Source of the DNA: Giardia intestinalis
Lineage: Eukaryota
Direction: 5' to 3' (one strand)
Assembly: GCA_000002435.2 (NCBI GenBank)
Contig: CM018791.1
DNA length: 64,000 nucleotides
Shown: positions 10,320 to 54,153 of the stretch, one piece after another
Layout of the letters: the number at the start of each line of letters is the position of its first letter
Position numbering within the stretch: the stretch's first letter is position 1
The notes under the pieces: generated by a model
Databases searched by the model: none
Told to the model about the DNA's origin: nothing
What the model saw: only the letters and a program-made list of their open reading frames with translations
Made by a program: the position numbers and the translations under genes

Positions 10320-13148
10320 ATGCTGGATATGCTATGCTGCCTAGCCCTCCTGAACCTGGCTCTGGCGGTCCCCCAGGAGTGCATGTTTGGCGGGGAGGAG
10401 TGTGGTGGACATGGGAGGTGCCATGTAAGTACTGATGGCACTCCGAGCTATTGTGTCTGCGATAGCGACTACACCCTCTCTCCCACCATGGGCTGTGTCG
10501 TAACAGCTTGTTACAGTGAGGTCCTCGACGTAATGTGCAACAACGGGGAGTGCCAGCAGGTCGACGGCGTTTACAAGTGCGTCTGCCCTTCAGATCTTAT
10601 CTATGTAGGGGGCCAGTGCACAACGATGGACTGTATTTCTAAAGAGGACGACGGGAGATTCACCGTCTGCTCTAACAACGGATACTGTGGGTACGGCTTC
10701 TTTGGTGATTCTAAGTGCATGTGCCTGCCTGAGTATGATGACGACGGACTTTGCAAGACGTGTAACACAACCAATGCGGACCTGATCGACGGTAAGTGTG
10801 TTAGCAAGAAATGCTTAACAGGGCCTCCTGGCGAGGCAACTCAGCTCTGTGGCGGGTGCGGAGCGTGCGTGAGGACGGGTGCAGGCTACAATCTTGCCTA
10901 CACGTGCGCATGCTCGGGTACAGATGGCTGTAAGGAAGTGTCCGCTGGAGTGTGCGGCATTGATGCCTGCATTTCAGACAATCAGTTGGGAGTCGTGTGC
11001 AATGACGCCGGAGTTTGCGATAAGAACGGCTGTCACTGCAATGCAGGGTACTCGGGCCCAACTTGTCTGGTCAACGAGAATGATCCTAACGCGTGCCAGT
11101 CGCAGTATACGCGGATCAATGGAGAGTGTGTGCCGAAGATCTGCGTGCCGGCCATACCTGGCGACAACGTTTGTGGAGGTCCTGAAGCTGGTACCTGCCT
11201 CTTCAATAAAGATATCAAGAACTTCTTTTGCTACTGCTCCGATGGCTATATTAATGCTCTCGATAACAGGATCGACTTTAATTATCAATGTGTGCCATTT
11301 GGTTGCCTAGATGGCCTTGGCGTTTGCTACGAGGGTAAGTGTCTTCCGGGTCAAGGGCCCTATCCATGCATCTGTGACCCAGGCTTCCACAACGACCCTA
11401 GGTCTGGCTTCTGTGGATCCGACATCTGCCTAACGGGCGGACCGGACAACCCCGACGAGGCTTGCAGTGGCCATGGCCAGTGCATGTACTACGGGTGCTG
11501 GTGTGATCCAGGCTACGGTGGTGATACCTGCAATGAGGATGCGCCGGTTTACTGCTATGAAGGCCAGATTGCAGTCGGCAAGGAATGCGTCTTTACAGAT
11601 TGCGTGAGCTACACACCTGAAATGGGCGTTTGCGGAGGCTTCGGGACGTGCGTGCAGTTCACTGGATTCTACGGTTCGAGTGATTTTTACGAATGCCAAT
11701 GTGACCCAGGTACGATTTACGACCGCGACTATCTCTGTCTGCCATCTGTCTGTCTTACAAGTGACGGCCAGGTCTGCCCACACGGATCGTGCCAGAAGGT
11801 GGATGGAGAGGCGACTTGCGTTTGCAACAACGGATACAAGAGCATTAACAATGCTTGCTTCCCTCTTTCGTGTCTTGTGACCATCGACGGAGAGGAGCTT
11901 GTTTGTGCAAACAACGGTGAGTGTGACCTTGACTCAGGAATTTGCAACTGCAATGAACTTTTCCACGGCGAGCACTGCGATGTCCCCAAGGACCACGAGA
12001 TCGTTTGCAATTCTGACGAAACCTTGATTGGCGAGCGGTGTGTTTCTGACTACTGCATATTCGATGGCGTAGAATGCAACAACCACGGGCGCTGTGATAA
12101 GACATTCAGCGACGGGCCCAGGTGCGCTTGTGACTTGCTGTATATACTCTCCGCCCAGTATGGTTGCGTTCCTCTGAACTGTTACGATCAAGACACGGAT
12201 TCCGTTTGCCCCGATGGCCGGTGCGTGGGTGAGGGCAAAGATATTCATTGTGAGTGTAACCCGGACTTTACCCTCATTAATTCTGTCTGTGTTCACAGCA
12301 ACTGTCTAGCAGATGATACGATTTGCTCAGGAAACGGCTACTGCGCGCAGAGTGTGTCTGGGGAGTACAAATGCCAGTGTGACTATCTTCATAGTGGTAG
12401 TCTCTGTAATGCGTGTTCGTCTGACGCGGTCCTTATAGATGGCTTGTGTGCCAGTGACAGCTGCATCACAGTAGATGCTTCTGGGAAGAAAACTGTTTGC
12501 TCTGGAATGGGTGTCTGTAAGAAGGATTCTTCTATCAGTAGCGCCTATTGTTCCTGCAGAGCTCCTTTTGCACTCGTCTCCGGAAAGTGTGTCTCTGCTG
12601 ATTGCTATGCTGGAGAGCCCATTGGTGCTCCCTGCAACGGCCGGGGCTACTGTGGCTTGAGCACTTTCTGCACAGATCCATCGACCTGTAACACGGGGCA
12701 ATGCTTCTGTAATGAGGAATACGAGGGCAGTCTTTGCGAGAGCTGCTCCTTCAACTATATCGACGTGCCAACCTACGGGTGTGTCGCCAGGGCATGTTAC
12801 AAGGATGGCTTGGTATGCAGCTCTGCCGGAGACTGCATTGATGGCCAGTGTCAGTGCGCGAGCGGCTATACTGCTTCCGGAGCCGAGTGTTTGATGCCTT
12901 CAGCCACAAAGAACGGAGTCCTGATTGGAACTAGCGTGGGCGGTGTCGTCTTACTCATAGCAATCATTGTCGGTGTATTCTTCTGCGTCAAGAAAGCGCG
13001 GAAAGGAAAGGCTCCTGAAGGGCGCGCAGGAAAGAAGACAAGAGCACTGCTGTCTGACGGTGACGACGAGGATGAGGACCTTTTGGTTCCTTCGGAGTCT
13101 GAGTCCGGGTCTGCCTCCGCTGCAACAGGCACAGATGAGATTCCTTAA
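10320..13148 (+). CDS. High-cysteine membrane protein (HCMP), EGF-like group, type I membrane topology.
   Basis: Signal peptide MLDMLCCLALLNLALAV. About 940 aa of repeated CxxC, GxC and EGF-like Cys spacings. One C-terminal TM (VLIGTSVGGVVLLIAIIVGVFFCV). A ~55-aa cytoplasmic tail lacks the VSP CRGKA terminus and contains the acidic dileucine DDEDEDLLVP. Confidence 0.85.
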   Translation: MLDMLCCLALLNLALAVPQECMFGGEECGGHGRCHVSTDGTPSYCVCDSDYTLSPTMGCVVTACYSEVLDVMCNNGECQQVDGVYKCVCPSDLIYVGGQCTTMDCISKEDDGRFTVCSNNGYCGYGFFGDSKCMCLPEYDDDGLCKTCNTTNADLIDGKCVSKKCLTGPPGEATQLCGGCGACVRTGAGYNLAYTCACSGTDGCKEVSAGVCGIDACISDNQLGVVCNDAGVCDKNGCHCNAGYSGPTCLVNENDPNACQSQYTRINGECVPKICVPAIPGDNVCGGPEAGTCLFNKDIKNFFCYCSDGYINALDNRIDFNYQCVPFGCLDGLGVCYEGKCLPGQGPYPCICDPGFHNDPRSGFCGSDICLTGGPDNPDEACSGHGQCMYYGCWCDPGYGGDTCNEDAPVYCYEGQIAVGKECVFTDCVSYTPEMGVCGGFGTCVQFTGFYGSSDFYECQCDPGTIYDRDYLCLPSVCLTSDGQVCPHGSCQKVDGEATCVCNNGYKSINNACFPLSCLVTIDGEELVCANNGECDLDSGICNCNELFHGEHCDVPKDHEIVCNSDETLIGERCVSDYCIFDGVECNNHGRCDKTFSDGPRCACDLLYILSAQYGCVPLNCYDQDTDSVCPDGRCVGEGKDIHCECNPDFTLINSVCVHSNCLADDTICSGNGYCAQSVSGEYKCQCDYLHSGSLCNACSSDAVLIDGLCASDSCITVDASGKKTVCSGMGVCKKDSSISSAYCSCRAPFALVSGKCVSADCYAGEPIGAPCNGRGYCGLSTFCTDPSTCNTGQCFCNEEYEGSLCESCSFNYIDVPTYGCVARACYKDGLVCSSAGDCIDGQCQCASGYTASGAECLMPSATKNGVLIGTSVGGVVLLIAIIVGVFFCVKKARKGKAPEGRAGKKTRALLSDGDDEDEDLLVPSESESGSASAATGTDEIP

Positions 13149-13175
13149 GTTAACGAGTGTAAATCCAACTTTTCC

Positions 13176-15311
13176 TCAGTGCCGTTTGCTTCGAGCACTG
13201 GACGGTTTTGTGGGGGCGAGCGATCTTACGTGGGGCTGGTGGTGGATCTGCTGGTGCTCACTATCCTTGCGCGAAGGCTTACTAGGTATTTCCAGAGCCT
13301 CAGAATTGCGAGAGACAGGCAATTCATACTTTCGCTTCGCAGTAAGCTGCGGCTGCAGGGCTGTCTGCATCTTAACTGTGTTCTGGGACTCTCGACCCGG
13401 AGAAGGAAGATTGCCTGAGGGCTCAACAAATTCAGTTATGGACTCTGACTCTGCATAGCGGATGCGTAGAACTGGCTTTGCGGAGAGCAGCGTTAGGAAG
13501 AGATGATACGCAACAGATGAGGTTCCGACGGCTCTGATGTCAAGTAGCACTGTTTTGCGCAACAACCGATTCAGAACCGGAGAAAGGGCGGCGTCTCTGG
13601 CATTTAGTTCAATGTAGCCTTTGTGAAGCAGAGATATCTCCTTCGGAGCCATATTCAGCATCCCGTTTATATAAAGCCCTGCCGGTAGAATACAGGTAGG
13701 TGATATGGGTCCTCTCTCGCTGTTGTTCCGGCGTGTCTCTTGTTCGCAGAGCATGTGATCTAGGATCTCGTTGCTTGAACCTACGAGCTCGAGTAGTGCC
13801 CGCTTGAGCCTTGATGATCTAACTATCTCTTTCTTAAGAATAGACTCTAATCTACTATTGCGATGCTCTGCCAATCGCGTTTGTTCTTCCTGGACCTCCA
13901 GTTTCTTTTCTACATCTCGTAGTTTTGCTTCCAAGGCCCTTGCTTCCTTTTCAAATGCTAAAGCTTTTGTGCTGCTCTCTACCGAATGCTTACCTTGATA
14001 GCAAACAGTGTCCAGTTCTTCCCTACTAAGCATGCCATCTTTAAGCGTCACATCAAAGGCGTCAGCCGGGCCTCCATTTTCCAGAAAGACAAGGCAGTGG
14101 CGGCCCAAGGTGGCGCCAATAAGCTCGTAATCGTCGGCGTCTATATGCCGTATAGCTCGCTTGAGCAACCTGGTAAATGAGAGACTTTCTTTGAGCCAGA
14201 AGCAAAGCGCTACGGTAGTGATATCTTGTTGGTACCCTTGGGGTGATGCGTCAGTCGATACAGACACTACCGAGTATTGTATTGTCGCCAGTGCCAACAG
14301 AAACCTTGTTATATGTGCAGCCACTTCCGGTTTACCATGAGCGATCCCACAGTCGATCAAGGCATCCAGATTTAGTGCACCGCAGCGTTTGGTACTGACA
14401 AGAAGCCGCTGAGCAGCACACGAAATTGCCACGGCATCCTCATATGGAAGAGTTGTGAATACCGATGCACTGACCTGGATTGTCACGGCTCCCGCTGTAG
14501 TTGCGTAATTTCTTTGAGGGTCAAATAGGACCGACCGTGGCCCTATTGGTATGTTATAGCAGCCACCGCCGCGAGAAAATGTGTGTATACATTCGTATGT
14601 CCTGCTTTTCTCGGGACATTGATTGATGACCGTGATGCTGAACTTTACTGAGAGAGGGCTTAACTGTGCAGTGTAGTTGGGTAAGCACCCTTTATGGACG
14701 AACATGAGGCCCATGAACGCCGTTTGTGTTCTATGCCGAGGAACTAAAACCACTTCAATGCTGCTGGTGAACCGAGTTAGGCATAGGGTCTTGCGCTCGA
14801 TTTCAGAGGATGGTCCCATGGACAGCACACGCTTATCGCAAACCAGTACAAACTCTCCGCAAAAGAAGGGACCACAAAGTGCCTCTCCCAGGTATTTGTC
14901 CCATTGATGTGAAATTTCTCCAGTCCTCTCAGAGCTTGGCGGAACGGGATGTTGCTGGCAGATGTCATAGCTCTTAGCGTCAGAGACCTGAGCCTGTCGA
15001 TATCCACGTGCAACTTTATTTAGAGCCGAGTTCAAATACGGTCTGGATACAACCAATGTGTGGCAGACAAAGCACCGCATATATCTATTCTGGGTGATCT
15101 CGCGCTCGTAGCACCACTGGCATACATTGTGGGAGCAGCTGAGACAATATGCCACTTCATAAACCATGCCGCAGCCAGGGCAAAGAAGAGCTCGAGGAAT
15201 TTCCTGAATTGGAAGAATGGCCTTCAACGCCGTTGTCTTCAGAAGATCGGAGTCTGTCGATTGGCCGTCTGACTCGTTAATCCCGCCTGTCGAAAGAGCA
15301 TATGCATTCAT
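13176..15311 (-). CDS. RING-finger (C3HC4) protein with a B-box-like Cys/His cluster and a coiled-coil (TRIM/RBCC-like architecture); putative E3 ubiquitin ligase.
   Basis: CPGC-x11-C-x-H-x2-C-x2-C-x13-C-x2-C fits the RING-HC spacing. It is followed by CQQHP...CGPFFCGEFVLVC and a predicted coiled-coil (ALEAKLRDVEKKLEVQEEQTRLAEHRNSRLESILKK). Confidence 0.7.
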   Translation of the reverse strand: MNAYALSTGGINESDGQSTDSDLLKTTALKAILPIQEIPRALLCPGCGMVYEVAYCLSCSHNVCQWCYEREITQNRYMRCFVCHTLVVSRPYLNSALNKVARGYRQAQVSDAKSYDICQQHPVPPSSERTGEISHQWDKYLGEALCGPFFCGEFVLVCDKRVLSMGPSSEIERKTLCLTRFTSSIEVVLVPRHRTQTAFMGLMFVHKGCLPNYTAQLSPLSVKFSITVINQCPEKSRTYECIHTFSRGGGCYNIPIGPRSVLFDPQRNYATTAGAVTIQVSASVFTTLPYEDAVAISCAAQRLLVSTKRCGALNLDALIDCGIAHGKPEVAAHITRFLLALATIQYSVVSVSTDASPQGYQQDITTVALCFWLKESLSFTRLLKRAIRHIDADDYELIGATLGRHCLVFLENGGPADAFDVTLKDGMLSREELDTVCYQGKHSVESSTKALAFEKEARALEAKLRDVEKKLEVQEEQTRLAEHRNSRLESILKKEIVRSSRLKRALLELVGSSNEILDHMLCEQETRRNNSERGPISPTCILPAGLYINGMLNMAPKEISLLHKGYIELNARDAALSPVLNRLLRKTVLLDIRAVGTSSVAYHLFLTLLSAKPVLRIRYAESESITEFVEPSGNLPSPGRESQNTVKMQTALQPQLTAKRKYELPVSRNSEALEIPSKPSRKDSEHQQIHHQPHVRSLAPTKPSSARSKRH

Positions 15312-15357
15312 GGAGTAACCAAGAGTTATAATGCCACGGTTTACTGTATGCTGTTGA

Positions 15358-17700
15358 CTACTTCAACTGTTCCCGTAAAGAGTCGGGAGAAATAGGCCCA
15401 TACTCTGTTATGATACAACTGATTAGCTTGGTATCGACGGTGTCGTACAGTGGTTTAATTATCTGTATCTTGTCTGTCTGACCCAGTGTGAAGGTGCCCG
15501 TGTCTTGTAAGACATTGTTTGACAGAGCATTTATGTAAATCTGATCGGTGACTTTATAGGTCTCACACCCAACGATGAGAGGTATTCTGTAGAACTTTGC
15601 AATATTGGCTATAAGGGACGCGCCAGCACGACCTTGAATGCTCCCGTTGAGGCTCACACTATGTGCTCCCATGATCACCTTTGTTGCGTGCTTGATGAAC
15701 AACGGTAAGGACGTCAGCAGCCCATAGAAGCAGGGGATCCCGGCCTGCGAAAGTTTCTTGATAATGTCCAAGCCACACTGACACTCCGAAGCATCAATGC
15801 AGATGACCTCAAAGCACGCTTTACTATCCGTCTCTGCCTGGAGACGGAGGTGCGCCAATATCAGGGCCTTAAGTACTATGCGTGACTTACCAAAGACTAT
15901 CACGCAATCGTTCTGCTTTATCCGTCTGCTGAGCTCAACATAGATGTCATTGGATGCCTTGACAATCCTCTCATTGTACAGAAGCTTCACAAAGTCGAGC
16001 ATGTTATGTATAACTCCCTCTGCAGACGTAAGCGCTGCGCCACACAGGTCTGGAGTCTTCTGGGCAATATCATCCATTCCGTTTCTGCCTTCTTCAAAAA
16101 GGTATGTTGCAGGATCATCGTTGGGTGCAGTGGCTTTAGCCTTTCTTGGGTTCAGTTGATTGCCCATCTTGTTACCAGTATCATCACCGCTCATGTCCAT
16201 CGGAGGGCTCGTAATCATTTGTGGCTCTACCACGCGACCAGGAAGTCCCGGAATTGAACAGATTTTAGTGAGTGTTATGACGTCGGATGTACCCTTCTGT
16301 ATTGGCGGGCTATCAGGTAGCAGGAGGCTTGCGGTGTTAATCATAGTGCTAGTAGTAGTATTATGGCTACCATAGACTTGACCCTCCACGTTCTCTACTG
16401 ACTCGCTGGTTGCTTCTGTGTGAGAAATAGCAACTGTCTTAAGTACGTCTACAGAAGAGCACTTATCGTTTTCCCTTTCTCTCTCCTTTTCTCTCTCTTT
16501 CTCTTTCTCTTTACATTTGTCAGACAAGTCCGTCGGTTCATTGAATAAATTAAAGTTTGAGCTGGTTTGATCTGTGCAGCTCTTCTCAGAGGTACAGCAA
16601 CCGGGGATGCTCGTTATTTTCTTAAGGAAAAGCTGCCTATCCGGTCTGTCGCACGACTCATTCCATTCGTCGGCCTTGACAATGGATCGAGGCATAGAGT
16701 AGAGGGTCTGAGCCATGTTTGTGGTGCTATACCGGATGCTGGGAGTGAGCGGTGTGTATAGAGCCTGGTCTATGTTGTTGTGGCTAAGTCTCGAAATTAC
16801 ATCCATCGTGCTTGTGGGCCCAATGGTTAAGTTACTAGCAAAGCTATTAGAGATCGGGGGTGTAATATTGTGTGCATCGCTTTCAACCAGGCTTGTGCTG
16901 TCCTTGTACATTAAACTAATTTGATCTTCAAGGTAGTCGCAGTGCTCCATCACACTCTGAACAATGAACTGAATGGTCGTAGGAACAGAAGGATAGAACG
17001 CGCTCACTATAGTGACAAGCATCGTCAGATTGCCACGCAGCTGAGAGAGGACGCCACCAAGTGAGATTGGAACCGCAGACCCAATAACAGAGCCTTGGTG
17101 AGAAGCTATCTCTGGATGCAGCTCATGCACACCTGATGTATTAAGGGGCGTCTGATGGTTGGATGAAAAAGTATAATTCGCAAAAAGAGCCTCCAGTTGA
17201 CTCTCATATGCCCGCAAAAAGGCAACAGCACGTGCTGTGGCAGACTCGCGGATGTCGCTGATGTTATCTATGTAACAGCGAGCATCTGTTGATAGTATGT
17301 TGAGAGGTTGCTTTATAGCGTGTTCAAACCTGGCTATCTGATCGGATGAGAGGGACTCCACGCTGCTGGTGTGTTTACCTTTCTGATCACTGAAGTTAAT
17401 ACTGGGATGGCGATGCTGTCCAAACGATGCATAAAAGTCGTCGTCTGCTTGTCCAGATATGTAGAGGGGAGAAAACTTACGATACAAAGACATATTGACT
17501 GCTCCACTATCTCGTGCATCTCGCGAAGAGTCATCAATGTCCAAGTGCAAAGGGTTTTCACACTTGCTGGGGTACTTCATCAAATGTTTTTTGAAACGAG
17601 ATGCCTCTGTCTGTGGCAAAACAAACGTCTCATCCAGCAAAATACTCGAACAGTGCATGATGTATGGACGGTCAGTATTTACTAGAGCGAATAGAATCAT
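15358..17700 (-). CDS. Translation initiation factor eIF2B subunit (IF-2B family, delta/beta-like) with a long low-complexity N-terminal extension.
   Basis: The C-terminal ~300 aa (VIVFGKSRIVLKALILAHL...GIPCFYGLLTSLPLFIKHATKVIMGAHSVSLNGSIQGRAGASLIANIAKFYRIPLIVGCETYKV) aligns with the IF-2B domain of eIF2B delta. Confidence 0.7.
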   Translation of the reverse strand: MILFALVNTDRPYIMHCSSILLDETFVLPQTEASRFKKHLMKYPSKCENPLHLDIDDSSRDARDSGAVNMSLYRKFSPLYISGQADDDFYASFGQHRHPSINFSDQKGKHTSSVESLSSDQIARFEHAIKQPLNILSTDARCYIDNISDIRESATARAVAFLRAYESQLEALFANYTFSSNHQTPLNTSGVHELHPEIASHQGSVIGSAVPISLGGVLSQLRGNLTMLVTIVSAFYPSVPTTIQFIVQSVMEHCDYLEDQISLMYKDSTSLVESDAHNITPPISNSFASNLTIGPTSTMDVISRLSHNNIDQALYTPLTPSIRYSTTNMAQTLYSMPRSIVKADEWNESCDRPDRQLFLKKITSIPGCCTSEKSCTDQTSSNFNLFNEPTDLSDKCKEKEKEREKERERENDKCSSVDVLKTVAISHTEATSESVENVEGQVYGSHNTTTSTMINTASLLLPDSPPIQKGTSDVITLTKICSIPGLPGRVVEPQMITSPPMDMSGDDTGNKMGNQLNPRKAKATAPNDDPATYLFEEGRNGMDDIAQKTPDLCGAALTSAEGVIHNMLDFVKLLYNERIVKASNDIYVELSRRIKQNDCVIVFGKSRIVLKALILAHLRLQAETDSKACFEVICIDASECQCGLDIIKKLSQAGIPCFYGLLTSLPLFIKHATKVIMGAHSVSLNGSIQGRAGASLIANIAKFYRIPLIVGCETYKVTDQIYINALSNNVLQDTGTFTLGQTDKIQIIKPLYDTVDTKLISCIITEYGPISPDSLREQLK

Positions 17701-17844
17701 GTGTTAAGCCAGCGATATGTCTCTTGAGCAGTCTTACAAAATGCTAATTACATGTCTGACCATGTTATTAAACATTTGAGTCTGAGGTACAAGCTTAGCG
17801 AGTCGTTAACAAAGGCTATTGTTAATGTACTGCGAGAAAAATAA

Positions 17845-20800
17845 ATGCTCCTATTCGCTCTTAACTTTTTGGCGAACCTTTTGGCAGACTGTGGGCCAGG
17901 TAGCGATTGCGTTCATGGGGTGTGCGGTACCACTGACGGATCCTTTGTCTGTCTGTGCAAGCGGGGCTGGACAGGCACTGCATGCGATGTGGTTGCACCT
18001 AATTTTAAACTGATTAGCTCCGGCAGTGATCCGAAGATAGAGAAAGCGGTCAACTTCGCGTGTTTAGTCAATGGTACAGAGTGTGATACCAAAAGGACAG
18101 AAACATGTCTTTATCACAATGGTGCATATTCATGTCAGAATAAATGCCCTGATGGATTCGTCATATACGATGGAGAATGTATCTCTAAGAGATGCTATTC
18201 GTCCAGTTCTGTATCGTCAGATACTCCCCAATCCAACCCCCCGTGTAATGGGAAGGGGAAGTGTGTCCTCAAGGACTTGGCGAAACTTGATCGTGCCGAT
18301 GAGGCAGACTACGTGTGCAGCTGTTTTCCAATTTATAGAGGAGATCTCTGTGACACCTGCAACCTAGAGAACTCCGTTGAGTCCGAAGCAGACAAAGGAA
18401 AATGCAATCCAAGATCCTGTCAGGATAGCGACGGGCTTGTCTGCTCTGGCAAGGGAAAGTGCGAGTTGGACTTTGGCTACAACCTCACTCACTATAGCTA
18501 CCAGTGCATATGCGATGCTGGATATACGCGTGTTGGCCACTCTTGCATCCCGTCAGCTTGTGTAGTGTACCTAAGCGGTACCCCTGTGACCTGTGGGGGC
18601 TTCGGTGAGTGTAAGGAGAACCCCGAGGGTTCAAATAGCTTCTCCTGTGCCTGCTATGAGGGCACTGTAAAAGTAGGAAATGGATGCACATACCGCACCT
18701 GCACCGAAAGCGAAAGTGCAAGCAAGATATGCGGAGGCATCGGTGTCTGTGTGCGTGATGACACAGAATACAAGTGTGACTGCAAAGGGTTTGCTACCGG
18801 CAGCTTATGCGATAGCTGCGTTTCTGAAAATGCAACCTCTGTGGGCAATCAATGTATACCAAATGAGTGCCTCGACGAAGCAGGCACGACGGTTTGTAAG
18901 GGCAATGGAAAGTGCATCCGAGCAAGTGGAAGGTACTATTGCCAGTGCCCCAACATGACTACATTCTTCAACAAACAGTGCATCTCGGTTAACTGCATTG
19001 ATCAGGAACTCAACCTCATATGCTCTGGTCACGGAACTTGTGACACCACCAGTCCCAAGGATATGAAGTGCACTTGTGAAAGTGGCTATGAATATATTGC
19101 GCCGGGTCGCTGCATTTCAAGCACACTGTTGGGAACGGACAAAAGGGTTTGCAATGGTAACGGATACGTGGCTATTTCTTCTACTAATACTATTGGTAGC
19201 GCGCCAAATCTTGTCTGCATCTGCTCTCCTATTTACACAGGAGAGAACTGCAGTACGTGCAACACTACAGGGGAAAACGCTCCTGCTGAACAAGTGGACA
19301 GTAACTGCGTACCAAAAAGTGTCATTGTTAAGTCTACTCAGCTGCATGCAAAGGAAGTAACTACAAAAGTATGCGATGAACAGACAGAGTACGTAATATA
19401 TGGAGATACTACACGTCCGTACATGACGTGTAGGGTGAAGAATACAGACGAAAAGAAAGTCATTGCCTATAATGCAACGCTTCTGGTGGAGCCAGACTGT
19501 ATGCACGTTAGTCAGGTTGATAGAACTAGGAGATTCTACTGTGGTTTTGCGGAAGGGTTGACAGACGGAATAACTACCAATGGGCCTAGCTGCAATACAA
19601 ATACAAATATTATTCCCTCTACTTCAACATGCGTATGTCCAACAAACTTTAAGCTCGTGGAGTTCATATACGGCAAGAACAAAGGAAAGCATACCTGCAT
19701 ACACGATGATTGCCATGATGGTAACCAAACTTACAACCAAAACAATTATTGTGGAGGCGTTGGGGACTGCATTAAGAAGCCCGGTGCAAGCAAATATGCA
19801 TGCGATTGTGGACAGGGTGCACGGTGGGACGAGACCATTAGGGAATGCGTGGCTGAGACATGCAAGATTGATAAACTTATATATGGCCCTAGCGAAAGAG
19901 AGTATTGCACAGAGATTAATATCGCGGCGAGCATCGACAACGTATGCCTCCCAGATGATAGCGGAAGGTGGGGATGCCACTGCACAGGGCGCTACATGAC
20001 ATATGGGAGCACGTGTACATCCTACGCAGCATATGCCACGGAAAAAGATGACCGCGCACGAGGCCCATGTGGCGGTCCTGGTGCGGGTTACATCAACGAC
20101 AGGAACAAATGTGTGTGCTATCCTGGGTTTGTGTCGATAGATGGGAAGTGCTACAGTAAGCAATGCTTGGCAATGGGCGTTATAGGATCCTACAATATAA
20201 GCCACGTATGCTCTGGACTTGGGGTATGTGCATACAACCCTGTCACTGGCTTCTATGGGTGCGAATGTCCCAAAGACACGGAATCATATGGGGCATACTG
20301 CACCCATACAGGATGTGTCGGACAAGTCTTTTCCGAAGGGGAGCTGAGATACGTACAGTGTGGTGTCCACACCAGAAGCATACAGTGCAAACAGAATAGC
20401 AAAGATAATACATATTCTTGTATCTGCTACACACCGTACAAGAAGATCGGTAACCTTTGCGTCCACCAACGGTGCATTAACGGTGACATATATTGCAGTG
20501 GAGATTTGCTTGCTAATTGTGAGCTCTTGGAGTCAATATATCAGTGTCAGTGCTCCGAAGGGTATGTGAAAGGTAGAAGCCCGCACGAATGCATCCCGAA
20601 GAAATGCACATATAGAAGATATGAGAGTGACCTGGTGACGGAGTGTGGCGGACTGGGTCGATGCGAGGGTGATAAACTTATCACCAAGAAATGTAAGTGT
20701 AACGATGGTGCTGAGCTGGTGTCTATGATCGACATAAGCGGTGAAATGCATGAAACATGTGTGTCCAAAAGCTGCATTTCTAAGCAGGATGATACAACGA

Positions 20801-22410
20801 TAGTTTGTGGCGGTTATGGACGGTGTGACGGCAACGCTTGCATCTGTGATGGAAATCTTGTCCCGGTTGGAAATGTTTGCGTAAGCAGTAAGTGCGTTGT
20901 TCAACTGGCAAGTGGAAGCACTTCTGTGTGTGGAGGTAGTACTGTGGGGACATGCACAAAGGGTCAAGGTGAAGACCACTACTCTTGCAAATGTGCAACA
21001 CCAGGGAAGACAGGCTTTAAAGAAGTTGATGGATACTGTCTCCCCAATAAATGTGTGTTCAACGTAAAGCAAAATGGAAAAGATGTTGACACGATGTGCG
21101 GCGGGGCAAGTCTTGGATCTTGCATTATCGACCCAACTGGCGATACTTCATACTGTAGTTGTCTAAGATGGTACAATATAACAACACTTAGTAGTGGCCA
21201 GTGTATTAGTACCAGGTGTGTTAATTCTGTTACCTCTGACAAGAAAGAGTGTGGAGGAAATGGAAGATGCGCTTACACAGATGGCACTGGGTATGAGTGC
21301 CAGTGTAATTCTGGATACAAAACGGTAACGGTCGGGCGTAACATTTATCCGTGCATCTCTGAAAACTGCCTAGCAGGTGAGTCAATGTGTAGTGGTCACG
21401 GGGAGTGCGTAAACAACGGCTGCAGCTGTAACAAAGGTTATACTGGTAGCAAGTGTGAGTCCTGTGCAACGGGGTATAGAGAGACTAACTCCGTCTGCTA
21501 TCTGGATGAGTGCCCACAAAGTGGCTGTGGACTAGCAGAAGCGGGAACCTGTGCGTTTACGGGCTTGCAATATCAATGTAGCTGTAATACTGGCTTCGTC
21601 TTAGATACCGAGACAAAGGCCTGTCGGCGTCCTCTTTGCACATATATAGATCCGTTTGACGGACAGGCGAAAATATGTTATAATATGGGAACATGCGCTC
21701 AGTCTGGAAGCACAGGAAAATGCGTATGTAATCAGGGAACTGTGGCTCTTAATGACAACATATGCGTCTTTGAAAACTGCATCACCAATAAGGATTCGTC
21801 CGAAATATGTGAAGGAAAGGGCGTGTGTGAGAGGAGTCCGGAGTCTAATACAGGCATTTGCGTGTGTAACACATCTCTTTATCGCACAGACAAGAAGAGT
21901 GGGCGTTGCTTCCCGGTGGGCTGCTTTTCCTCACAAGAGACTGGCCTGACTAATGTCTGTAATGGCGGTGGGACATGCAGCGTAACAGGGGTGGTTGGAA
22001 TTTGCAATTGTGATAGCGACTGGGTTACGATAGAGGGAATGTGTTACCCGGTTTCTTGCGTATTTGGAGGAGCCGTATGCAGCGGGTTTGGAAAGTGCAT
22101 CTTCTCTAGCAGCGGAGAGCACAGATGCCTTTGCGACCAAGGTTACGAGCCTGGTGAAGATTTAGGAACGTGCATCACTCGTTCTACAAAGGCAAAGCAA
22201 GGAGCGGCCGAGATATCGATAATTGTGGTGGTTGTGGTTGCTCTAGTGATTTTGGCAGTAGCCATATTCTTGATCTGGAAGTTCGTCATCAAACCTCGCT
22301 CCAAGTCACGCAAAAGAAGTAACAATGACCTCAATCAAAGATTGATCACGGTAGATGGCGAAGATGCTCCTGTGCTTTCTCCACGAGCTCGAGGACAGAC
22401 TCTGATGTAA
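17845..22410 (+). CDS. High-cysteine membrane protein (HCMP), EGF-like, 1521 aa.
   Basis: Signal peptide MLLFALNFLANLLADC. Dozens of EGF-like Cys modules (CxCxxGYxGxxC and CSGHGxC patterns). One TM (ISIIVVVVVALVILAVAIFLIW). A basic ~45-aa cytoplasmic tail without CRGKA. Start context GAGAAAAATAAATG. Confidence 0.85.
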   Translation: MLLFALNFLANLLADCGPGSDCVHGVCGTTDGSFVCLCKRGWTGTACDVVAPNFKLISSGSDPKIEKAVNFACLVNGTECDTKRTETCLYHNGAYSCQNKCPDGFVIYDGECISKRCYSSSSVSSDTPQSNPPCNGKGKCVLKDLAKLDRADEADYVCSCFPIYRGDLCDTCNLENSVESEADKGKCNPRSCQDSDGLVCSGKGKCELDFGYNLTHYSYQCICDAGYTRVGHSCIPSACVVYLSGTPVTCGGFGECKENPEGSNSFSCACYEGTVKVGNGCTYRTCTESESASKICGGIGVCVRDDTEYKCDCKGFATGSLCDSCVSENATSVGNQCIPNECLDEAGTTVCKGNGKCIRASGRYYCQCPNMTTFFNKQCISVNCIDQELNLICSGHGTCDTTSPKDMKCTCESGYEYIAPGRCISSTLLGTDKRVCNGNGYVAISSTNTIGSAPNLVCICSPIYTGENCSTCNTTGENAPAEQVDSNCVPKSVIVKSTQLHAKEVTTKVCDEQTEYVIYGDTTRPYMTCRVKNTDEKKVIAYNATLLVEPDCMHVSQVDRTRRFYCGFAEGLTDGITTNGPSCNTNTNIIPSTSTCVCPTNFKLVEFIYGKNKGKHTCIHDDCHDGNQTYNQNNYCGGVGDCIKKPGASKYACDCGQGARWDETIRECVAETCKIDKLIYGPSEREYCTEINIAASIDNVCLPDDSGRWGCHCTGRYMTYGSTCTSYAAYATEKDDRARGPCGGPGAGYINDRNKCVCYPGFVSIDGKCYSKQCLAMGVIGSYNISHVCSGLGVCAYNPVTGFYGCECPKDTESYGAYCTHTGCVGQVFSEGELRYVQCGVHTRSIQCKQNSKDNTYSCICYTPYKKIGNLCVHQRCINGDIYCSGDLLANCELLESIYQCQCSEGYVKGRSPHECIPKKCTYRRYESDLVTECGGLGRCEGDKLITKKCKCNDGAELVSMIDISGEMHETCVSKSCISKQDDTTIVCGGYGRCDGNACICDGNLVPVGNVCVSSKCVVQLASGSTSVCGGSTVGTCTKGQGEDHYSCKCATPGKTGFKEVDGYCLPNKCVFNVKQNGKDVDTMCGGASLGSCIIDPTGDTSYCSCLRWYNITTLSSGQCISTRCVNSVTSDKKECGGNGRCAYTDGTGYECQCNSGYKTVTVGRNIYPCISENCLAGESMCSGHGECVNNGCSCNKGYTGSKCESCATGYRETNSVCYLDECPQSGCGLAEAGTCAFTGLQYQCSCNTGFVLDTETKACRRPLCTYIDPFDGQAKICYNMGTCAQSGSTGKCVCNQGTVALNDNICVFENCITNKDSSEICEGKGVCERSPESNTGICVCNTSLYRTDKKSGRCFPVGCFSSQETGLTNVCNGGGTCSVTGVVGICNCDSDWVTIEGMCYPVSCVFGGAVCSGFGKCIFSSSGEHRCLCDQGYEPGEDLGTCITRSTKAKQGAAEISIIVVVVVALVILAVAIFLIWKFVIKPRSKSRKRSNNDLNQRLITVDGEDAPVLSPRARGQTLM

Positions 22411-24711: not shown

Positions 24712-25392
24712 ATGGAAGAGATAGAATGTTCACTCATGGATATGGAGAACGCTCTTTCGGCATTCCAGAAGCACATCAGCGCCTATAAGTCTAACCCAAC
24801 AACTGCATCAGCCAAAGCATCACTCGCGTCTGCGGACACAGCTCTCTCCAAAGCCAAGAGCTTCCAGACACAAGTTGACAGCTTGCTCAAGGGAGTCACT
24901 GGCCTGGAAGCCCGTAGAGCACAGCAACAGTTTAAGCTTCTTCAAACAAAAATAGCAAATGCCTCACAAGAACTCGAGCAAGCAAAGCGCCGTGCAGACG
25001 CTAAAAAGGTATCCAGCAAGGCGAGCACAGTTGATGACCTCCTAACCATCGCTGCACAAAAGAAGCAAGAGAATGTCAATCTTCTAGAAGATGCAAATAG
25101 AAACTGCGATGAGGCAGGTACCATCGGAAATGCAATAGTTGAAGACTTGGGAAGACAGAATGAACAGCTGCGAGGAATAAGCAGCAGGGCAACAAAGATC
25201 CAAGCCAATGCGAGGGGCGGAGCGGAGATCACAAATAGAATGATCAAGTGTGAGAGAATAATTAAGATTGTTCTTTGGTCTGCATCTGTTCTCTTCCTCG
25301 GCTTATCTGCTTTAGGGTTCTATGTATACCACCACAATGTTCCTCACAACAATCCAGAGCCGGCTCCAGAGCCCTCAGAGATCAGATATTGA
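24712..25392 (+). CDS. Tail-anchored Qb-SNARE, GS28/Gos1-like.
   Basis: SNARE heptads TIGNAIVEDLGRQNEQLRGISSRATKIQANARGGAEITNRM parallel GS28 (VGTSILENLHMQRETLTRTQNRLNDTDSYLGKSNRMLKGM). C-terminal TM IVLWSASVLFLGLSALGFYVY. The poly(A) signal AGTGAAC lies 7 nt after the stop. Confidence 0.6.
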   Translation: MEEIECSLMDMENALSAFQKHISAYKSNPTTASAKASLASADTALSKAKSFQTQVDSLLKGVTGLEARRAQQQFKLLQTKIANASQELEQAKRRADAKKVSSKASTVDDLLTIAAQKKQENVNLLEDANRNCDEAGTIGNAIVEDLGRQNEQLRGISSRATKIQANARGGAEITNRMIKCERIIKIVLWSASVLFLGLSALGFYVYHHNVPHNNPEPAPEPSEIRY

Positions 25393-46907: not shown

Positions 46908-49900
46908 CTATGTGTACTTACCTATGAGCTCGTCAATGTCTGTGTCTACGCATAATTCGTGACTGTTGCTCAGGATGTCCACGGTGTCTACAACATTAAT
47001 ACCTTCTTCCTCTACTCCAAGCGTGTTAGGAAGGCTTGGTTGCAGCACAGAACTAGCAACCTCTAATTCTTGTAGATTAGTATCCACATCTATTACATTA
47101 ATAGATGCAGATATCTGTGACGAATTGTCATTTGCATATGTCTCAATAAGAGAGTTAACATCCGGTGGAAGATCTAAGTCCTTATAAATATCTATTTGTG
47201 GTGCCCCTTTGCCAGCAGGTTTCACGCCCACAGCACAGTTCCCAGCTTGCAATCTAGTTGCCTGATTGGCCTGCGTAATGGGCCTGTAAGGTGGCAAAGA
47301 TGATGTTGTGACACTCGCTGAACCGGCTAGATCAACTACAGAGTCAGAAATGGTCAGCCCTGAGTCTATTTCGCCTCCTGTTCTGCTCTGCAACGCCGAG
47401 AGGGTCACCGGTGCATCATTTGTAGGGTACTGTTGGTGTAAGATGTGTGGCGGAAGAGACGCTTGTTGAGGTAATCCTTGCTGGACGGTCGCGGTAGTGG
47501 ACAGGCGCATAGCTGAAGGTAAAGGCGGAAATGCTCCACTGGCAGGGACAGGTGTCAGAGTAGAAGAAGGAGTGGACTGGAACTGTACACGTGCTTGCTT
47601 GTGCATAGTTTGAGCCTCAAGAACTGCCAATCGCTCCATTAAACGTTCGTTTTCGAACTGTAGCTTGGAAATTTCGTTAACGTGTAAAGAAACAGCGGTT
47701 TCTACCCCAAGCTTCTCTCTCTGTAGCTCTTGGATGCGTCTATCATAGTCGAGCATCATGGTCTGGAGGTCTAGCTGATGTTTCGAAGACTGTTGCTCAA
47801 GGGAAAGGTGCGCGTCGTGGTTCTGCTGTGTGATCTCTCGTAATTCCATCCGCAGGTTGGTGATCTCTTGCGTTAGCTGTGCTTTCTCCTCCGTCAACCT
47901 CTTCTTTGACTCAGTGGACCTCAAGAGCTCGGAGGATAGCTTGCGCAGCTCCTCCTCATAGGTTTCCTTAATCTGCTCAAGGGCATCCTCCTGGTCTTTG
48001 AGCGAGCGTCCAGAGGCAGTCATGCTTTCCATTAAGTCCTTCGAAAGATTTTGTCTCTGCGCAAGCACTTCCTTCTGGTTGGCTACTGTCATACTTAACT
48101 CCTCCTTCTCTTCCGTGAGGATTTTGATGCGGTTGCTAGCAATTGCGAGATCACTTTCTAACCGAGTAGCACGGGTTTGCTCTGTGATATAATCCGAGTT
48201 TAAATTGGCAACCTGCTTATTTAAAGCTTCATTCTCCATCCTCATGTCATCAAGTTGTGATCGTAACTGTTTCAATTCCACTTCAATCTTCTCTTTGCTG
48301 ATTGCGATAAACTTCATCTCATCAGCTGTGGCTCTGCAGTCTTCTTCACTATCCCTCAGACGCTCCTTGAGAAGGTCAATCTCTCGCTGTGCCTCTGTGC
48401 AGGAGGCCAGCTTTACTTTGCAAGCGGTGAGTTCTGTTCTTACTGTCTCGAAATCTCTGCTCACCTCTTCGCTTGCGCTCTTGAATGCTGCGTACTCGCT
48501 GCTGAGAGAGTCCTTATCATTGGTTAACCGTGCAATGTCTAACTTCTGTGTTTCTCCCCACAACTGAAGCCTCTCTATTTCCGCCTGGAGGGCTATTTGC
48601 TTTGTCACCAGGTCTGAATTCTCCTGCTGGAGCTTTACGCCCTTGGCCCGCAGGGCGTCCTTTTCTGCAGTCAAGTGCGAGACCTCGGCCTCTGCCGTCT
48701 TGAGAGAAGACTCCTGCTCCATTACTGTCATCTCCATCTTGGATATGTCTCGTGTAGCTTTCGTAAACGATGCTGTAACAGAATTTAGCTTATCTATAAG
48801 GTCCTTGACTTTAGCTGTCAGTTCCACTTTCTCTTGTGTGACTATTCCAAGGTTCTCTTTCAGGAGGTCGAGTGCGGCGTTCTTCTCGGCTACCATCTGT
48901 TTCATGGAGCTCTCAGAGCCATCGATTCGTAGTAACTGGGCTTCCAGCTCTACAATTCTAGCTGTCTTTTCTGCCAATTGCTGAGCAAGAAGGCTCAGTT
49001 CGCTTTCCTTTGCCAGTAGTAGGGCCTCCTTGTCTTGAACGGAGGACAGCAACTCCGTACACTTCTCATTAAGGCCACCAATTTGTTGCTTTTGGTCAGC
49101 GACAACAGAAGTGAGATTTGCATTTGCATGTGATAAGCGCAATATTTCATGCTCTGCCTCAGACATCTTGGCATGGGCCTCTGCAACGCCATTAATCGCG
49201 GCCTGATAATTCTCCTGCAAGGTCTCTAACTGTTTTCGAAGAATACCTGCCTCTTCTGCTGCGGTCGAGAGCTCCTGATGCTTCTCTTGAAGTGACACCC
49301 TCTCTCGATCTCCATCTGCGCATTGTTCAAGCAGAATTGAATACTCTCCGGATAACTTCGTGTACTGTGCAGTCATATCTGCGCTATGCGCCTTGGCTTG
49401 CTTGAGCTCTAGAATAGCCTGCTCGTTAAGTGTCTTGAGGTTCTGAATCACCATATCGAACTTCTTTATCATGACGTCCAGCATCCGAAGGATTGCTATG
49501 CGGTCCAGAATAATGGACTGCTCGCCTTCCTTTTTCTCCCAAGATGACTCTGTGGCGTCGCCTTCTTTGGTACTGAAAGAGACGGACTTCTGCGACTTAG
49601 CTAGGACTATCTGGCTGGTTGGCTGCTTCATTGATCCACCCAGAGCAGCACCATCACTGACTGAGCGGAATGGATTGAACGAGCTTGCTTTGATATAATT
49701 TGATGTACTTTTACCCACACCTTCTGCCTTGAGAGGCCCTACCAATCCCTCGCTATTAAGAGAGTACGTTAATACAAAGCTAGTAGTCGCGAGTGCACTT
49801 CTTGTCACGGCTTTTCCACCAGATACAATGGAAATAGAATCTAGTTGATATTCTAATTTGTATGCATTATAAAGGAGAACGATCTTGTCAAATAGAGAGT

Positions 49901-52900
49901 GCAAATCTGTTTCTCGCTCATCAACCAGACGGCCCTTCTCTCTAATTTCTGAAGCCCAGCGCTCTTCAGCTTCCTTGAGCAAACATCGCGTGTTCTCGTA
50001 CTCTATGCTTAGCGAATTAAACTCTTTGAGAGTCACTGTGTACTGATCTTCCTTTTCTTTGAGTTTCTCTTCTAGTGCTATAACTGTGTTAGACTCGGTA
50101 ATGTTGGCATCCTGCAGCTTAATCGTTAATAGCTTGTTATTGTCCTCAAGCGCCTTTACCTTGTGGTTCAGCTCTGAGGCCAGGGAGTCTGCAATGTAGT
50201 ACTCTGAACTTAGTCTAGATATCTCTGCTTTAGCCCTTTCTAACTCCATTGCCTTCTCAGCCGCCTCTTCACTGACAACAGACACCCTCTGCTCTAGCTG
50301 CACAATGAAGCCACACTTTTCTTCATAGTCTGTCTGCAGTGCTCCAAACGCGGATGAAAGGTTGTTGTGCTCATCTATAAGATTATTCAGATCTGCTTGC
50401 AGAGTACTTGCAAGAATTGTGCACTGGACAGCTTGAGCCCTGGCTACTGTCTTCTTTACGGGGAGAGACCCTGCTAGCTGTGGCGATCTAACAGTGACAG
50501 GATCATCTACATAATTTAGTGATCGACTTTTGCGAGAATTATCTTTTGGTGGCATGGCATTCTGAAATTCATCCACTGAATTACGAACGCTTTTGACGGT
50601 CATGGTTTGTATCCCTGGACTGCCTATTGTTGGTGTTGTAGGATAGTCAGATGTATTAGCCTTCCGTTGACTGCCGATCTCACTAGTCCTCTGAGATGGC
50701 TGAACTAACATGAGTGATGCTGTCAGCGTATCGTTGCGGCTGCGCTCAAACTCAACTTGGCGCTGCAGATCTTCCACTTTGGACTCCAGAGTCTCTTGCT
50801 TCAATTTCCAGTCCTGCTCTGTTTTTCTGATCTGCTCCTCCATTACTCTTCTCTCCTGCTCGGCTGCTACCTGGTACTGATGCTTCATTACCAAGTACTC
50901 CTCAGACTGGCTCTGTATCTCTTGACGCATCTTTGCATCCTGTGTTCTCAACGACTCTTCTGCCAAAGTAAGCCTGTCCACTAGTTGTCTTATCTCAGCA
51001 TCCTTCTCACCAATCACCACCTCTACCTCCTTCCTTGCCTTCTCAAGCAGACCCTTGTTCGCTGTAGCCTCTGTGTAATCCGTCTCTAGAGCTTTGTATT
51101 GAGCCACCAATTGCTCGTGGCTGGCTGTAAGCGACTCATACTTTTTGTGAGCGTTGCTCAATGCGACAGTGATTGTCTTATTTCGTTCCTGGAGCCTTGT
51201 GATTGCATTTGTTTGGTCTTCGCGGCTCTCAGAAAAGGCGGAAAGTTGCTGTTCAAGGTCGAGGTACGCTTGCTGCTGAACGCCTGCATCAATCTCCATG
51301 CGAGTAAGTTTCTCCTGAAGTGATTGAATAGTCGACTTGTATGATGTAATGGTTGTGTTGGCGTTTGCAAGCTCCATGTCCTTGTTCTCTAGCCTGATGA
51401 TTGTCAGCTCCAATTCCCCGATACGGGACACCTTTTCTGCACCATCTCGTTTAGCTTTTGTTAAGTCTTCCTGGAGTGTTGTGATAGCAGACTGTAGCTT
51501 TGACACTGTCCGTTTGGACTCTTCCAGCTCTGACTGGCACGCACTTATAGTGGCCATCTTCTTATCTAGCTCCCCCTCGAGCTCTATATGAGCCTTTAGC
51601 GCTGACGCCTTTTCATCTGTCAATCTCTTTAGGGACGTAGCCAGTTCAGAAGACTTAGCCTTGATAGCCTCGTAGCTAGCCAGCAAGTCGGCATTTTTCG
51701 CTGTGAGCAAGCTTATCTCTGCGCGGTGCTCATGCTCGAGTTTGTTATACTTTTGTTTGATGCTTGAAAGCTCTACTTCCCGCTCCATAAGCTGCTTCTT
51801 TGTCGCCTGCGATGTTATGACGTCATCGGACGCCTTAAAACCCTCAAACTCCCTATATAATTGGTCCCTATCCTCTTCCAGCTTTTTGTTCAATTGAGTA
51901 AGCTCTTGTACCTTCTGTCGCTGCTCACTTATTATAACATCTCGTTGCGAAAGTTGCTCCTGAGCTTGGGTGAATGATTGAATAGACTGAGCTAGCTTTT
52001 GTTCTAATTCCTGCAGAGCTTCTCTTCTATTAGCTTCACTCTTGCGTACCTGATGAATCTCCTCGCTGAGCTTTTGGTTTGTTTCCGACAGCGAAAGACC
52101 ATAGTTATATGCATCTGTGTATTGAGCTTTCAGTGTCTCGTACGTGACCTCTAAGCATCGGGCTTTTTCCTCCTCCTTTGCAAGGGCATTAAGTAGCTCC
52201 TTACGCTCTGCTGCCTGTCTTTCTGCATCTATGCTATGTTGTTTCAGCTGGGATTCCTGGAGCGAGAGCTTAGTCAGCAGGTCATTATGCTCTACTGTCA
52301 GCTTCCCGTGCTGCTTCTGGATTTGTAGGCTCTCCTCGCGCAGCGTGTTAAAGGAGTCATGCTGAAGTTGAAGTTCATGCTTCAATTCCTGTATCTGAGA
52401 GGCTAAGCCAGAACATTTCCGCTCATACCCTTCAGTTAGCTGTGCCTTTCCACGCTCGTATACACTGGCATTGGACTCATGGTGAGCTAGCTGTGCCTGA
52501 GCGCTTTCATAGCTCTTGCTTAATGATGCATGCTGTTCACGGAGGTGATCAAGCTCCTGTTTAAGGGCTTCACAAGTGGAGTTAAGTGATGCAATTTGAA
52601 TGTTCAGTGAACCTAACTCTGAGGAAGCCTGCACCAAATGTGCGTCTTTTTCCTTTAGCCGTTTAGCGTACGTTTCAATAGTATCTGTCGCCTCTGCCAG
52701 TTCTGACTGTAAGCGAGCCTGACCAGCCTTGGCGCGGGACAGCTCCCCATTCAGGCTGGCAATCGACTCTTCGTTGGCTCTGTCAGCTGCAGACACGTCT
52801 CCCAGCGCTCTTTCTGCATTGAACCTTCGCTCGTTAGCTTTGCGAAGCTCTTCATGAAGTTTATCCGTCTGAAGAACGGCGTCAGAGAGCTGCTGCGAGA

Positions 52901-54074: not shown

Positions 54075-54153
54075 CAAAAGGGCGATTTTTGAATTTTTAC
54101 CATTCACTCCTACTGAACGATAGTCGATAACGACCGGCGGTCGCCTTCGCCTG

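Follow-up and report, generated by a model that had tools for sequence, protein, structure and literature searches.

The 64,000-nucleotide stretch analysed here (the window) comes from chromosome 3 of Giardia intestinalis WB (assemblage A1) and carries two genes for large, cysteine-rich, EGF-like membrane proteins, the first of which, GL50803_24880, has a cytoplasmic tail with an acidic dileucine motif, a candidate sorting signal, which is the main subject of this analysis. GL50803_24880 (XP_001709981.1; UniProt A8B2I7) occupies positions 10320-13148 of the plus strand and encodes a type I membrane protein of 942 amino acids, and GL50803_16936 (XP_001709985.1; 1521 amino acids) occupies 17845-22410 of the same strand. 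A preliminary description, made from the sequence alone, had reported two EGF-like HCMPs about 4.7 kb apart on one strand; the open reading frames (ORFs) lie exactly as placed, with a gap of 4,696 nt, and exact-sequence look-up agreed that they are HCMPs and not VSPs, returning 'HCMP Group 2' for GL50803_24880 and 'HCMP EGF-like' for GL50803_16936. Six ORFs of the window gave WB RefSeq proteins in this look-up. The gap is occupied by a minus-strand pair, both members identified by ORF and look-up and both serving as synteny anchors: the RING-type protein GL50803_4837 (13176-15311), which is convergent with GL50803_24880, and eIF2B-delta (15358-17700). The wider surroundings consist of housekeeping genes (ornithine carbamoyltransferase (OTC), SMC, NEP1, eRF1, a Rad51-type recombinase, NEK kinases, and TPR and ARM proteins), and no VSPs were found in this wider neighbourhood of the two genes. 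Both genes were among the 61 HCMPs of Davids et al. (2006; PMC1762436), whose Table 1 gives the transmembrane (TM) and tail sequences of both, and both were re-listed as CRMPs in the preprint of Rodriguez-Walker et al. (2022), which gives a cytoplasmic tail of 52 amino acids for GL50803_24880 and the signal peptide and TM domain in its Table S1.

Hydropathy analysis revealed two hydrophobic stretches in each protein, a leader at the N-terminus and one segment towards the C-terminus, in agreement with the signal peptide and single TM segment proposed earlier. The signal peptide of GL50803_24880 (MLDMLCCLALLNLALA; 10320-10367, plus strand) is a hydrophobic N-terminus listed in Table S1 of the preprint; one older published table scores no predicted signal peptide, but a comparable leader is nevertheless kept in G. 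muris. The start at Met1 is supported by the retention of the upstream leader in the NCBI records of assemblages A, B and E and by its counterpart in G. muris. Several Logan/ENA models of the assemblage-B orthologue begin at the internal Met22 (919 amino acids) and are without the signal peptide (window 10320-10385). The ectodomain (10368-12914, plus strand) comprises about six diverged super-repeats, mutually 30-40% identical, and is followed by the TM segment GVLIGTSVGGVVLLIAIIVGVFFCV (residues 866-890; 12915-12989, plus strand), which is given by hydropathy and by Table 1 of Davids et al. (2006). The TM segment of GL50803_16936 (IIVVVVVALVILAVAIFLIW; residues 1459-1478; 22219-22278, plus strand), also found by hydropathy, is identical at 19 of 20 residues in an orthologue that is 70% identical overall.

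The number of EGF-like modules, put at hundreds in the preliminary description, was about tenfold too high: 16 and 22 C-x-C...aromatic...C signatures point to approximately 16-20 modules in GL50803_24880 and 22-28 in GL50803_16936. Pfam matches in the former were to EGF_2 (34.6 bits; cut-off 22.1) and EGF_Teneurin (33.0; 24.3), and in the latter to EGF (28.0 bits; cut-off 21.5) and EGF_Teneurin (24.9; 24.3). Cysteine makes up 12.8% of GL50803_24880 (121 Cys) and 11.0% of GL50803_16936 (168 Cys), with CxC motifs outnumbering CxxC motifs in both (17 vs 5 and 26 vs 4, respectively). Davids et al. (2006) defined HCMPs by a length of at least 400 amino acids, at least 10% cysteine and at least 20 CxC plus CxxC motifs, and by size, cysteine content, CxC plus CxxC count, type I topology and a non-CRGKA tail both proteins are members of the HCMP/CRMP family. 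Both fall outside the VSPs, being without the C-terminal CRGKA and without the conserved VSP TM segment; the tails finish ...TDEIP (GL50803_24880) and ...GQTLM (GL50803_16936), in keeping with the earlier remark that neither ends in CRGKA.

The tail of GL50803_24880 (KKARKGKAPEGRAGKKTRALLSDGDDEDEDLLVPSESESGSASAATGTDEIP) is 52 amino acids long and is not exceptional in length, as had been thought from an estimate of about 55 residues: 8 of the 61 HCMP tails have at least 52 amino acids, and the family spans 1-60. It consists of a basic, poorly conserved membrane-proximal part (KKARKGKAPEGRAGKKTRA; 12990-13046, plus strand) and a distal part of 33 residues (LLSDGDDEDEDLLVPSESESGSASAATGTDEIP; 13047-13145, plus strand) that is under tighter constraint than any other part of the gene. 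A motif scan returned exactly one match to the canonical pattern [DE]xxxL[LI] that had been read in this tail, namely EDEDLL (residues 917-922; 13068-13085, plus strand), beyond the TM segment and the basic positive-inside stretch, 26 residues away from the membrane and 20 before the C-terminus. The acidic cluster holds 7 D/E in 10 residues, the densest among HCMP tails, and the tail, of which ALLSDGDDEDEDLLVPSESESGSASAATGTDEIP is a peptide, also contains S-D-G-D and S-E-S-E, which match the CK2 pattern S-x-x-[DE]; the tail scan found no YxxPhi motif. The C-terminal TDEIP (residues 938-942; 13131-13145, plus strand) is identical in G. intestinalis assemblages A, B and E, in a divergent lineage from the ERR33333 samples and in G. 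muris, and forms a second conserved island; no nameable known C-terminal motif fits it. The pattern [DE]xxxL[LI] by itself is not significant, since a canonical match arises in 6.7% of shuffles of this tail (3-7% over shuffled tails), which counts against a signal and for the alternative that EDEDLL is a coincidental match in an acidic tail of low complexity. What carries weight is conservation: the motif persists in five lineages where synonymous divergence is saturated and is retained in the syntenic G. muris orthologue amid unalignable flanks, so that we regard a chance match as extremely improbable.

Non-conservation of the tail in orthologues had been named beforehand as grounds for abandoning the sorting prediction, and the opposite was found, the distal tail being invariant in A1, A2 and E. 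The A2, E and B orthologues of GL50803_24880 fall in one 90% cluster, the proteins of assemblages A and B are 84% identical, and the identity of the distal tail to that of WB is 33/33 in A2 and E and 30-31/33 in B, where a deletion of two amino acids is the sole difference. In the more divergent ERR33333 lineage (Logan samples ERR3333380 and ERR3333383), the order of eIF2B-delta, RING and HCMP genes is retained, the RING protein is 69% identical and the tail reads KKARKGEASGRAAKRERKALLSDGDDEDEDLLVPSESESASASAPTGTDEIP; for GL50803_4837, the nearest relative found outside assemblage A is 76% identical. The ratio of nonsynonymous to synonymous divergence (dN/dS; Nei-Gojobori, WB against this syntenic lineage, with dS saturated at 1.6-2.2 throughout) was lowest, at 0.018, over the 33 distal codons (dS 1.6); the ectodomain gave 0.054, the proximal tail 0.10 and the TM segment 0.13. 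Purifying selection thus acts more strongly on the distal tail than on the ectodomain. The acid at position -4 and the Leu-Leu pair are conserved as EDEDLL in A1, A2, B, E and the ERR33333 lineage, as ENKELL in G. muris and as EAQRLL in a G. muris paralogue. Within G. intestinalis, all 33 distal residues are frozen and the motif is not singled out, which tells against a specific role for it; only G. muris isolates the motif.

A further C-terminal fragment, 75% identical, was found on a 1.35-kb contig of 62% GC (P0121; ERR3333380, one of the two samples of the ERR33333 lineage). In its tail the second LL is gone (EDVPVPSEP), the first is canonical (EKRALL), and a long acidic stretch is inserted; downstream of the fragment the 1.35-kb contig holds no RING gene. 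The fragment may be a paralogue, derive from another genome or be a chimera, and it was not relied on as orthologue evidence.

The G. muris protein TNJ28428.1 (923 amino acids), which was missed by a word-indexed search and recovered by an exhaustive HMMER search, is 39% identical to GL50803_24880, and 117 of the 121 cysteines align with cysteine. Its locus has the order HCMP(+)/RING(-)/eIF2B-delta(-), as in the window, with orthologues of five more window genes nearby, and this shared gene order identifies TNJ28428.1 as the positional orthologue of GL50803_24880. Compared with window positions 1-22410, the G. muris locus (CM016926.1) is rearranged, with OTC, a kinase and three hypothetical genes on the opposite side of the HCMP-RING-eIF2B-delta trio, and counterparts of GL50803_16936 and SMC were not found at it. 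The tail of TNJ28428.1 (KRVRSQRRGSIPAESHETPTEDENKELLGSETDTDEIP; 38 amino acids) cannot be aligned with that of GL50803_24880 in its proximal part (3/19 identical), and the islands kept are ENKELL, with the -4 acid and LL, and TDEIP. Across the genus, only two tail elements persist: the -4 acid before Leu-Leu and the C-terminal TDEIP. The G. muris paralogue TNJ27967.1 (650 amino acids) is without approximately residues 529-796 and has an unrelated tail, which again contains a canonical motif, EAQRLL. TNJ27967.1 and TNJ28428.1 share a stretch of 198 residues at 100% identity, which suggests recent gene conversion between the two.

The G. muris tails also bear on a distinct explanation, in which the acidic stretch and the C-terminus would form a di-acidic [DE]x[DE] endoplasmic reticulum (ER) export signal for Sec24 of COPII, possibly together with TDEIP, and the LL would be incidental or structural. 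Giardia is without a Golgi, so ER exit would limit sorting, and several D-x-E/E-x-D triplets occur in the tail. The acids persist in the G. muris orthologue (TEDENKELL...TDTDEIP) and paralogue (ADEEAQRLL...SVEDVI), TDEIP resembles the acidic-hydrophobic ends of other tails (GSVDDF and GSVDEF in HCMPs; SVEDVI in the G. muris paralogue), and the retention of N-terminally tagged HCMPs in the ER shows that these proteins are sensitive at ER exit (PMC7461913). Between the genera, however, it is the -4 acid and LL that are conserved by position, and no given DxE triplet is; the LL is invariant at saturated dS, and a di-acidic export signal in Giardia was not described in the literature searched. We therefore consider export by di-acidic signal to be distinctly unlikely as the explanation of this tail.

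More distant homologues were found on contigs of 62% GC. The EGF-array membrane proteins P0002 and P0111 have tails in which YARL or YAQM (YxxPhi) precedes an acidic cluster rich in serine and in which there is no LL, which may represent a swap of adaptor-type motifs; their orthology is unproven. P0002 (SRR14944320; 1114 amino acids, with a TM segment and a YARL-acidic tail) lies on a contig of 62% GC with unrelated flanks and is kept as a lead only. A G. muris 'notch-like' protein (P0003), 27% identical, was set aside as an orthologue, its locus being non-syntenic and the protein without a TM segment. Another way to account for the constraint on the distal tail would be a docking module, regulated by phosphorylation, for a partner other than an adaptor (such as the cytoskeleton, an annexin-like giardin or a 14-3-3-type reader), with the serines as CK2 sites, so that the tail would signal or anchor and not sort. 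The two CK2-pattern sites together with the presence of CK2 in the Giardia genome, the freezing of the whole 33-residue block within G. intestinalis and the acidic Ser-rich tails of the 62%-GC homologues, which are kept without LL, are all consistent with such a module. In G. muris, however, the Ser-rich segment VPSESESGSASAA is replaced by GSETD while LL and the -4 acid are kept; the YARL/YAQM of the 62%-GC homologues is itself an adaptor-type YxxPhi motif, which leads back to sorting, and the literature search found no Giardia phosphoproteome, and hence none covering the tail serines. A docking module of this kind appears unlikely to us.

Leu-pair elements seem to recur in HCMP tails and to be no peculiarity of GL50803_24880, judging from an excess of L[LI] pairs and from a conserved element in a subgroup of the family. 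When the tails in Table 1 of Davids et al. (2006) were reduced to 28 non-redundant tail families, with expectations taken from shuffles, L[LI] pairs were present in 11 of the 28 (6.2 expected; P ~0.015) and the canonical [DE]xxxL[LI] in 3 (0.6 expected; P ~0.02), namely 24880, 16318 (DSTSLL) and 112432/137715 (EEPDLL). An L[LI] pair with an acid at most five residues upstream, a pattern chosen post hoc, was found in 8/28 against 2.25 expected (P ~0.0003). In the EGF-like HCMP subgroup (paralogues P0085-P0093), [AV]PLL[SNG] near the C-terminus is conserved across assemblages.

The second protein shows a different pattern. The tail of GL50803_16936 (43 amino acids; 22279-22407, plus strand) is net basic, as had been described, with 10 K/R against 4 D/E, and contains no canonical match, but it does hold a conserved near-motif, DLNQRLI (22327-22347, plus strand), in which the acid stands at -5 instead of -4. 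Its orthologue P0084 (70% identical; assemblage-B-type, from a clinical-isolate sample of Klotz 2023) has the tail WRFIIKARSNARRWRNDDLNQMLITATDGDSPPLSPRAREHANIR, with DLNQMLI at this position; the two tails agree at only 22 of 43 residues, and DLNQxLIT and LSPRAR are kept in both. Between the two proteins, the tail has a dN/dS of 0.19, compared with 0.08 in the ectodomain and 0.03 in the TM segment, indicating weak constraint on the tail. The position of the paralogues' APLL has decayed in this lineage (APVLS in WB; PPLS in P0084). GL50803_16936 is a paralogous EGF-like HCMP whose loosely constrained tail, with a near-motif only, suggests that any adaptor dependence is weaker or different. It is plausible that the two proteins differ in sorting, as had been proposed; the very different constraint on the two tails is compatible with this and is no demonstration of it.

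Our analysis favours EDEDLL as a candidate sorting signal for the sigma-containing hemicomplex of AP-1 or AP-2, a judgement that we hold to be evenly balanced. An E-x-x-x-L-L sequence within an acidic cluster with CK2-type serines would constitute a classical [DE]xxxL[LI] signal, and its reader could be alpha-sigma2 of AP-2 at the interface where plasma membrane meets peripheral vesicles (PVs), and/or gamma-sigma1 of AP-1 on the ER-to-PV route; CK2 could phosphorylate the serines that flank the motif. Under this model, GL50803_24880 would partition or cycle between the surface and the PVs, unlike a static VSP, and part of its ectodomain would be released. V88, V98, L103 and R15 of human sigma2, together with R21 of alpha, reportedly form the LL pocket and the contacts with the -4 acid. 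The human sigma2 sequence was checked against PDB 2JKR. In Giardia, the adaptor complexes are AP-1 and AP-2 only, a sigma subunit was detected in the GlAP2 complex (PMC4954726), and a general model of dileucine reading by the sigma-containing hemicomplex has been set out (PMC6115752). A precedent also speaks for the reading, since canonical tyrosine signals drive delivery to the PVs in ESCP, GlVps and GlLRP (PMC6115752), as does the excess of canonical motifs among the HCMP tail families.

Besides the chance rate of the pattern and the uniform conservation of the distal tail within G. intestinalis, several observations weigh against this reading. Giardia clathrin assemblies are static and coated vesicles are unseen (PMC4954726), so that canonical endocytosis via AP-2 cannot be assumed. 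The signals proven in Giardia are all tyrosine-based, the literature searched contains no demonstration of dileucine-dependent sorting in this organism, and a dileucine motif is not discussed there for any HCMP. There is also no mention of GL50803_24880 in the small part, about 17 kb, of the GlCHC/GlAP2 co-immunoprecipitation supplement that was searched. The localisation data point both ways. Wampfler et al. (2014; PMC3986054), who worked with flow-sorted organelles, list Gl24880 among 82 PV candidates, with very low spectral counts (0,0,0 in the encystation-specific vesicle fractions; 1,1,0 in the PV fractions), and the same block of the PV list includes two VSPs, bona fide surface proteins, so that carry-over of plasma membrane is possible. 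In the secretome of Ma'ayeh et al. (2017; PMC5739509), 24880 was detected with 10 unique peptides and 56 peptide-spectrum matches, all from the ectodomain and none found from the tail, and this abundance means that much of GL50803_24880 reaches the outside; the orthologue from the GS isolate is listed there as well, as is 16936. The earlier prediction of PV trafficking 'rather than stable surface display' therefore stands in part: the PV listing agrees weakly with its first half, and the VSPs in that list and the ectodomain in the secretome speak against the exclusion of the surface.

The same secretome data could be explained if GL50803_24880 were the precursor of a released EGF-array (tenascin-like) factor, with anchor and tail serving for delivery or cleavage and the dileucine having no sorting role. 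The peptides are ectodomain-only in both the WB and GS isolates, and the closest ectodomain relatives are secreted tenascin-like, notch-like and EGFCP proteins that have no TM segment. A functionless tail is, however, incompatible with a dN/dS of 0.018 and with survival to G. muris, and the same secretome contains many cytosolic proteins, so that presence in it is no proof of specific shedding; a precursor with an inert motif is in our view very unlikely.

Both genes are induced when iron is low. 24880 was the gene most up-regulated in low-iron medium (2.4-fold; false discovery rate 0.03), and 16936 was 1.7-fold up-regulated (Peirasmaki et al., 2020; PMC7461913). The top two low-iron-induced genes were GL50803_24880 and GL50803_13922 (Peirasmaki et al., 2020, Table S6), the latter coding for a type I membrane protein recovered by co-immunoprecipitation with GlAP2 (Zumthor et al., 2016). 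The joint induction of these two genes, together with the GlAP2 association of GL50803_13922, is a hint that some endocytic membrane proteins may form a set that responds to iron. A more far-reaching proposal would make GL50803_24880 a nutrient-responsive endocytic receptor that shuttles between surface and PVs by means of the first functional sigma-hemicomplex dileucine signal of Giardia, with TDEIP as a second, undescribed signal; we offer this as speculation and consider it unlikely.

The genes and their tails had been published before, as had the candidacy for PVs and the response to iron; what appears to be new is the AP-type dileucine reading, the finding that the motif and TDEIP are the sole tail elements kept to G. 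muris, and the syntenic G. muris orthologue. As a well-expressed and conserved protein, a cargo with a canonical dileucine would probe whether the sigma-hemicomplex mode works in the minimal endocytic system of Giardia, and would bear on the second question of how surface proteins reach or leave the PVs. If the receptor proposal is true, the family-wide excess of acid-preceded L[LI] would imply that many HCMPs are adaptor cargo and not a passive surface coat; if the motif is inert, what is left is a pair of genes already known and annotated. As a genus-conserved, syntenic, iron-responsive and receptor-like gene, GL50803_24880 stands apart from most other HCMPs, which are regarded as variable surface proteins induced by stress. 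The result is useful for work on trafficking in Giardia as a candidate instance of a well-known signal type on a known protein.

Elsewhere in the window, the public starts of eIF2B-delta (15358-17700, minus strand) disagree, giving 780 amino acids in XP_001709984.1 and 740 in XP_001709984.2, and the first ATG of the ORF yields the 780-residue product. An ORF of 226 amino acids at 24712-25392 (plus strand), about 2 kb downstream of GL50803_16936, has a sub-threshold match to V-SNARE_C (23.4 bits; cut-off 27.1) and may encode a SNARE. Two very large ORFs are also present, at 46908-54296 (minus strand; 2462 amino acids, with no Pfam match) and at 57936-63977 (plus strand; 2013 amino acids, with weak WD40-type matches only).

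Compared with known systems, GL50803_24880 shares with the Giardia HCMPs/CRMPs (Davids et al., 2006; Rodriguez-Walker et al., 2022 preprint) the signal peptide, at least 10% cysteine, at least 20 CxC/CxxC motifs, the single TM segment and the non-CRGKA tail, and differs from the family in its housekeeping, syntenic setting outside any variable VSP-rich region, its positional G. muris orthologue and its tail cluster, the most acidic of all. VSPs are likewise Cys-rich type I surface proteins, whereas in GL50803_24880 CxC motifs exceed CxxC motifs (17 vs 5), the gene is non-variable between isolates, and CRGKA and the VSP TM segment are lacking. The closest relatives of the ectodomain are the secreted tenascin-like, EGFCP and notch-like proteins of Giardia (26-28% identity), which are built of the same EGF-type modules but are without TM segment and tail. 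The tyrosine-signal cargo of Giardia, ESCP (YRPI), GlVps (YQII), GlLRP (FxNPxY) and the GlAP2 interactor Gl7188 (YLRV), are type I proteins that engage AP-1 or AP-2 and have a PV placement; these bind mu subunits, whereas the motif of GL50803_24880 would engage the sigma hemicomplex, a binding mode without known cargo in Giardia.

The motif is closest to the AP-type signals read by AP-1 (gamma-sigma1), AP-2 (alpha-sigma2) and AP-3 (delta-sigma3), as in CD3-gamma, LIMP-II, Nef and GLUT8, with which it shares E-x-x-x-L-L, and GL50803_24880 is further alike in its unstructured cytosolic type I tail with acidic and serine flanks; it differs in the placing of the motif along the tail and in that Giardia has AP-1 and AP-2 only and is without clathrin-coated vesicles. 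The segment SDGDDEDEDLLVP is similar to the tails of CI-MPR and sortilin (...DDSDEDLL...), and DEDLL of WB also fits the GGA-type signal DXXLL, which in mannose-6-phosphate receptors and sortilin is bound by the VHS domains of GGAs. A GGA-type reading was rejected: the D at -3 is lost in G. muris (NKELL, AQRLL), and GGAs are reported to be absent from Giardia (PMC3423367). The -4 acid is kept where the -3 D is not, and this, with the absence of GGAs, favours an AP-type reading of the GL50803_24880 tail.

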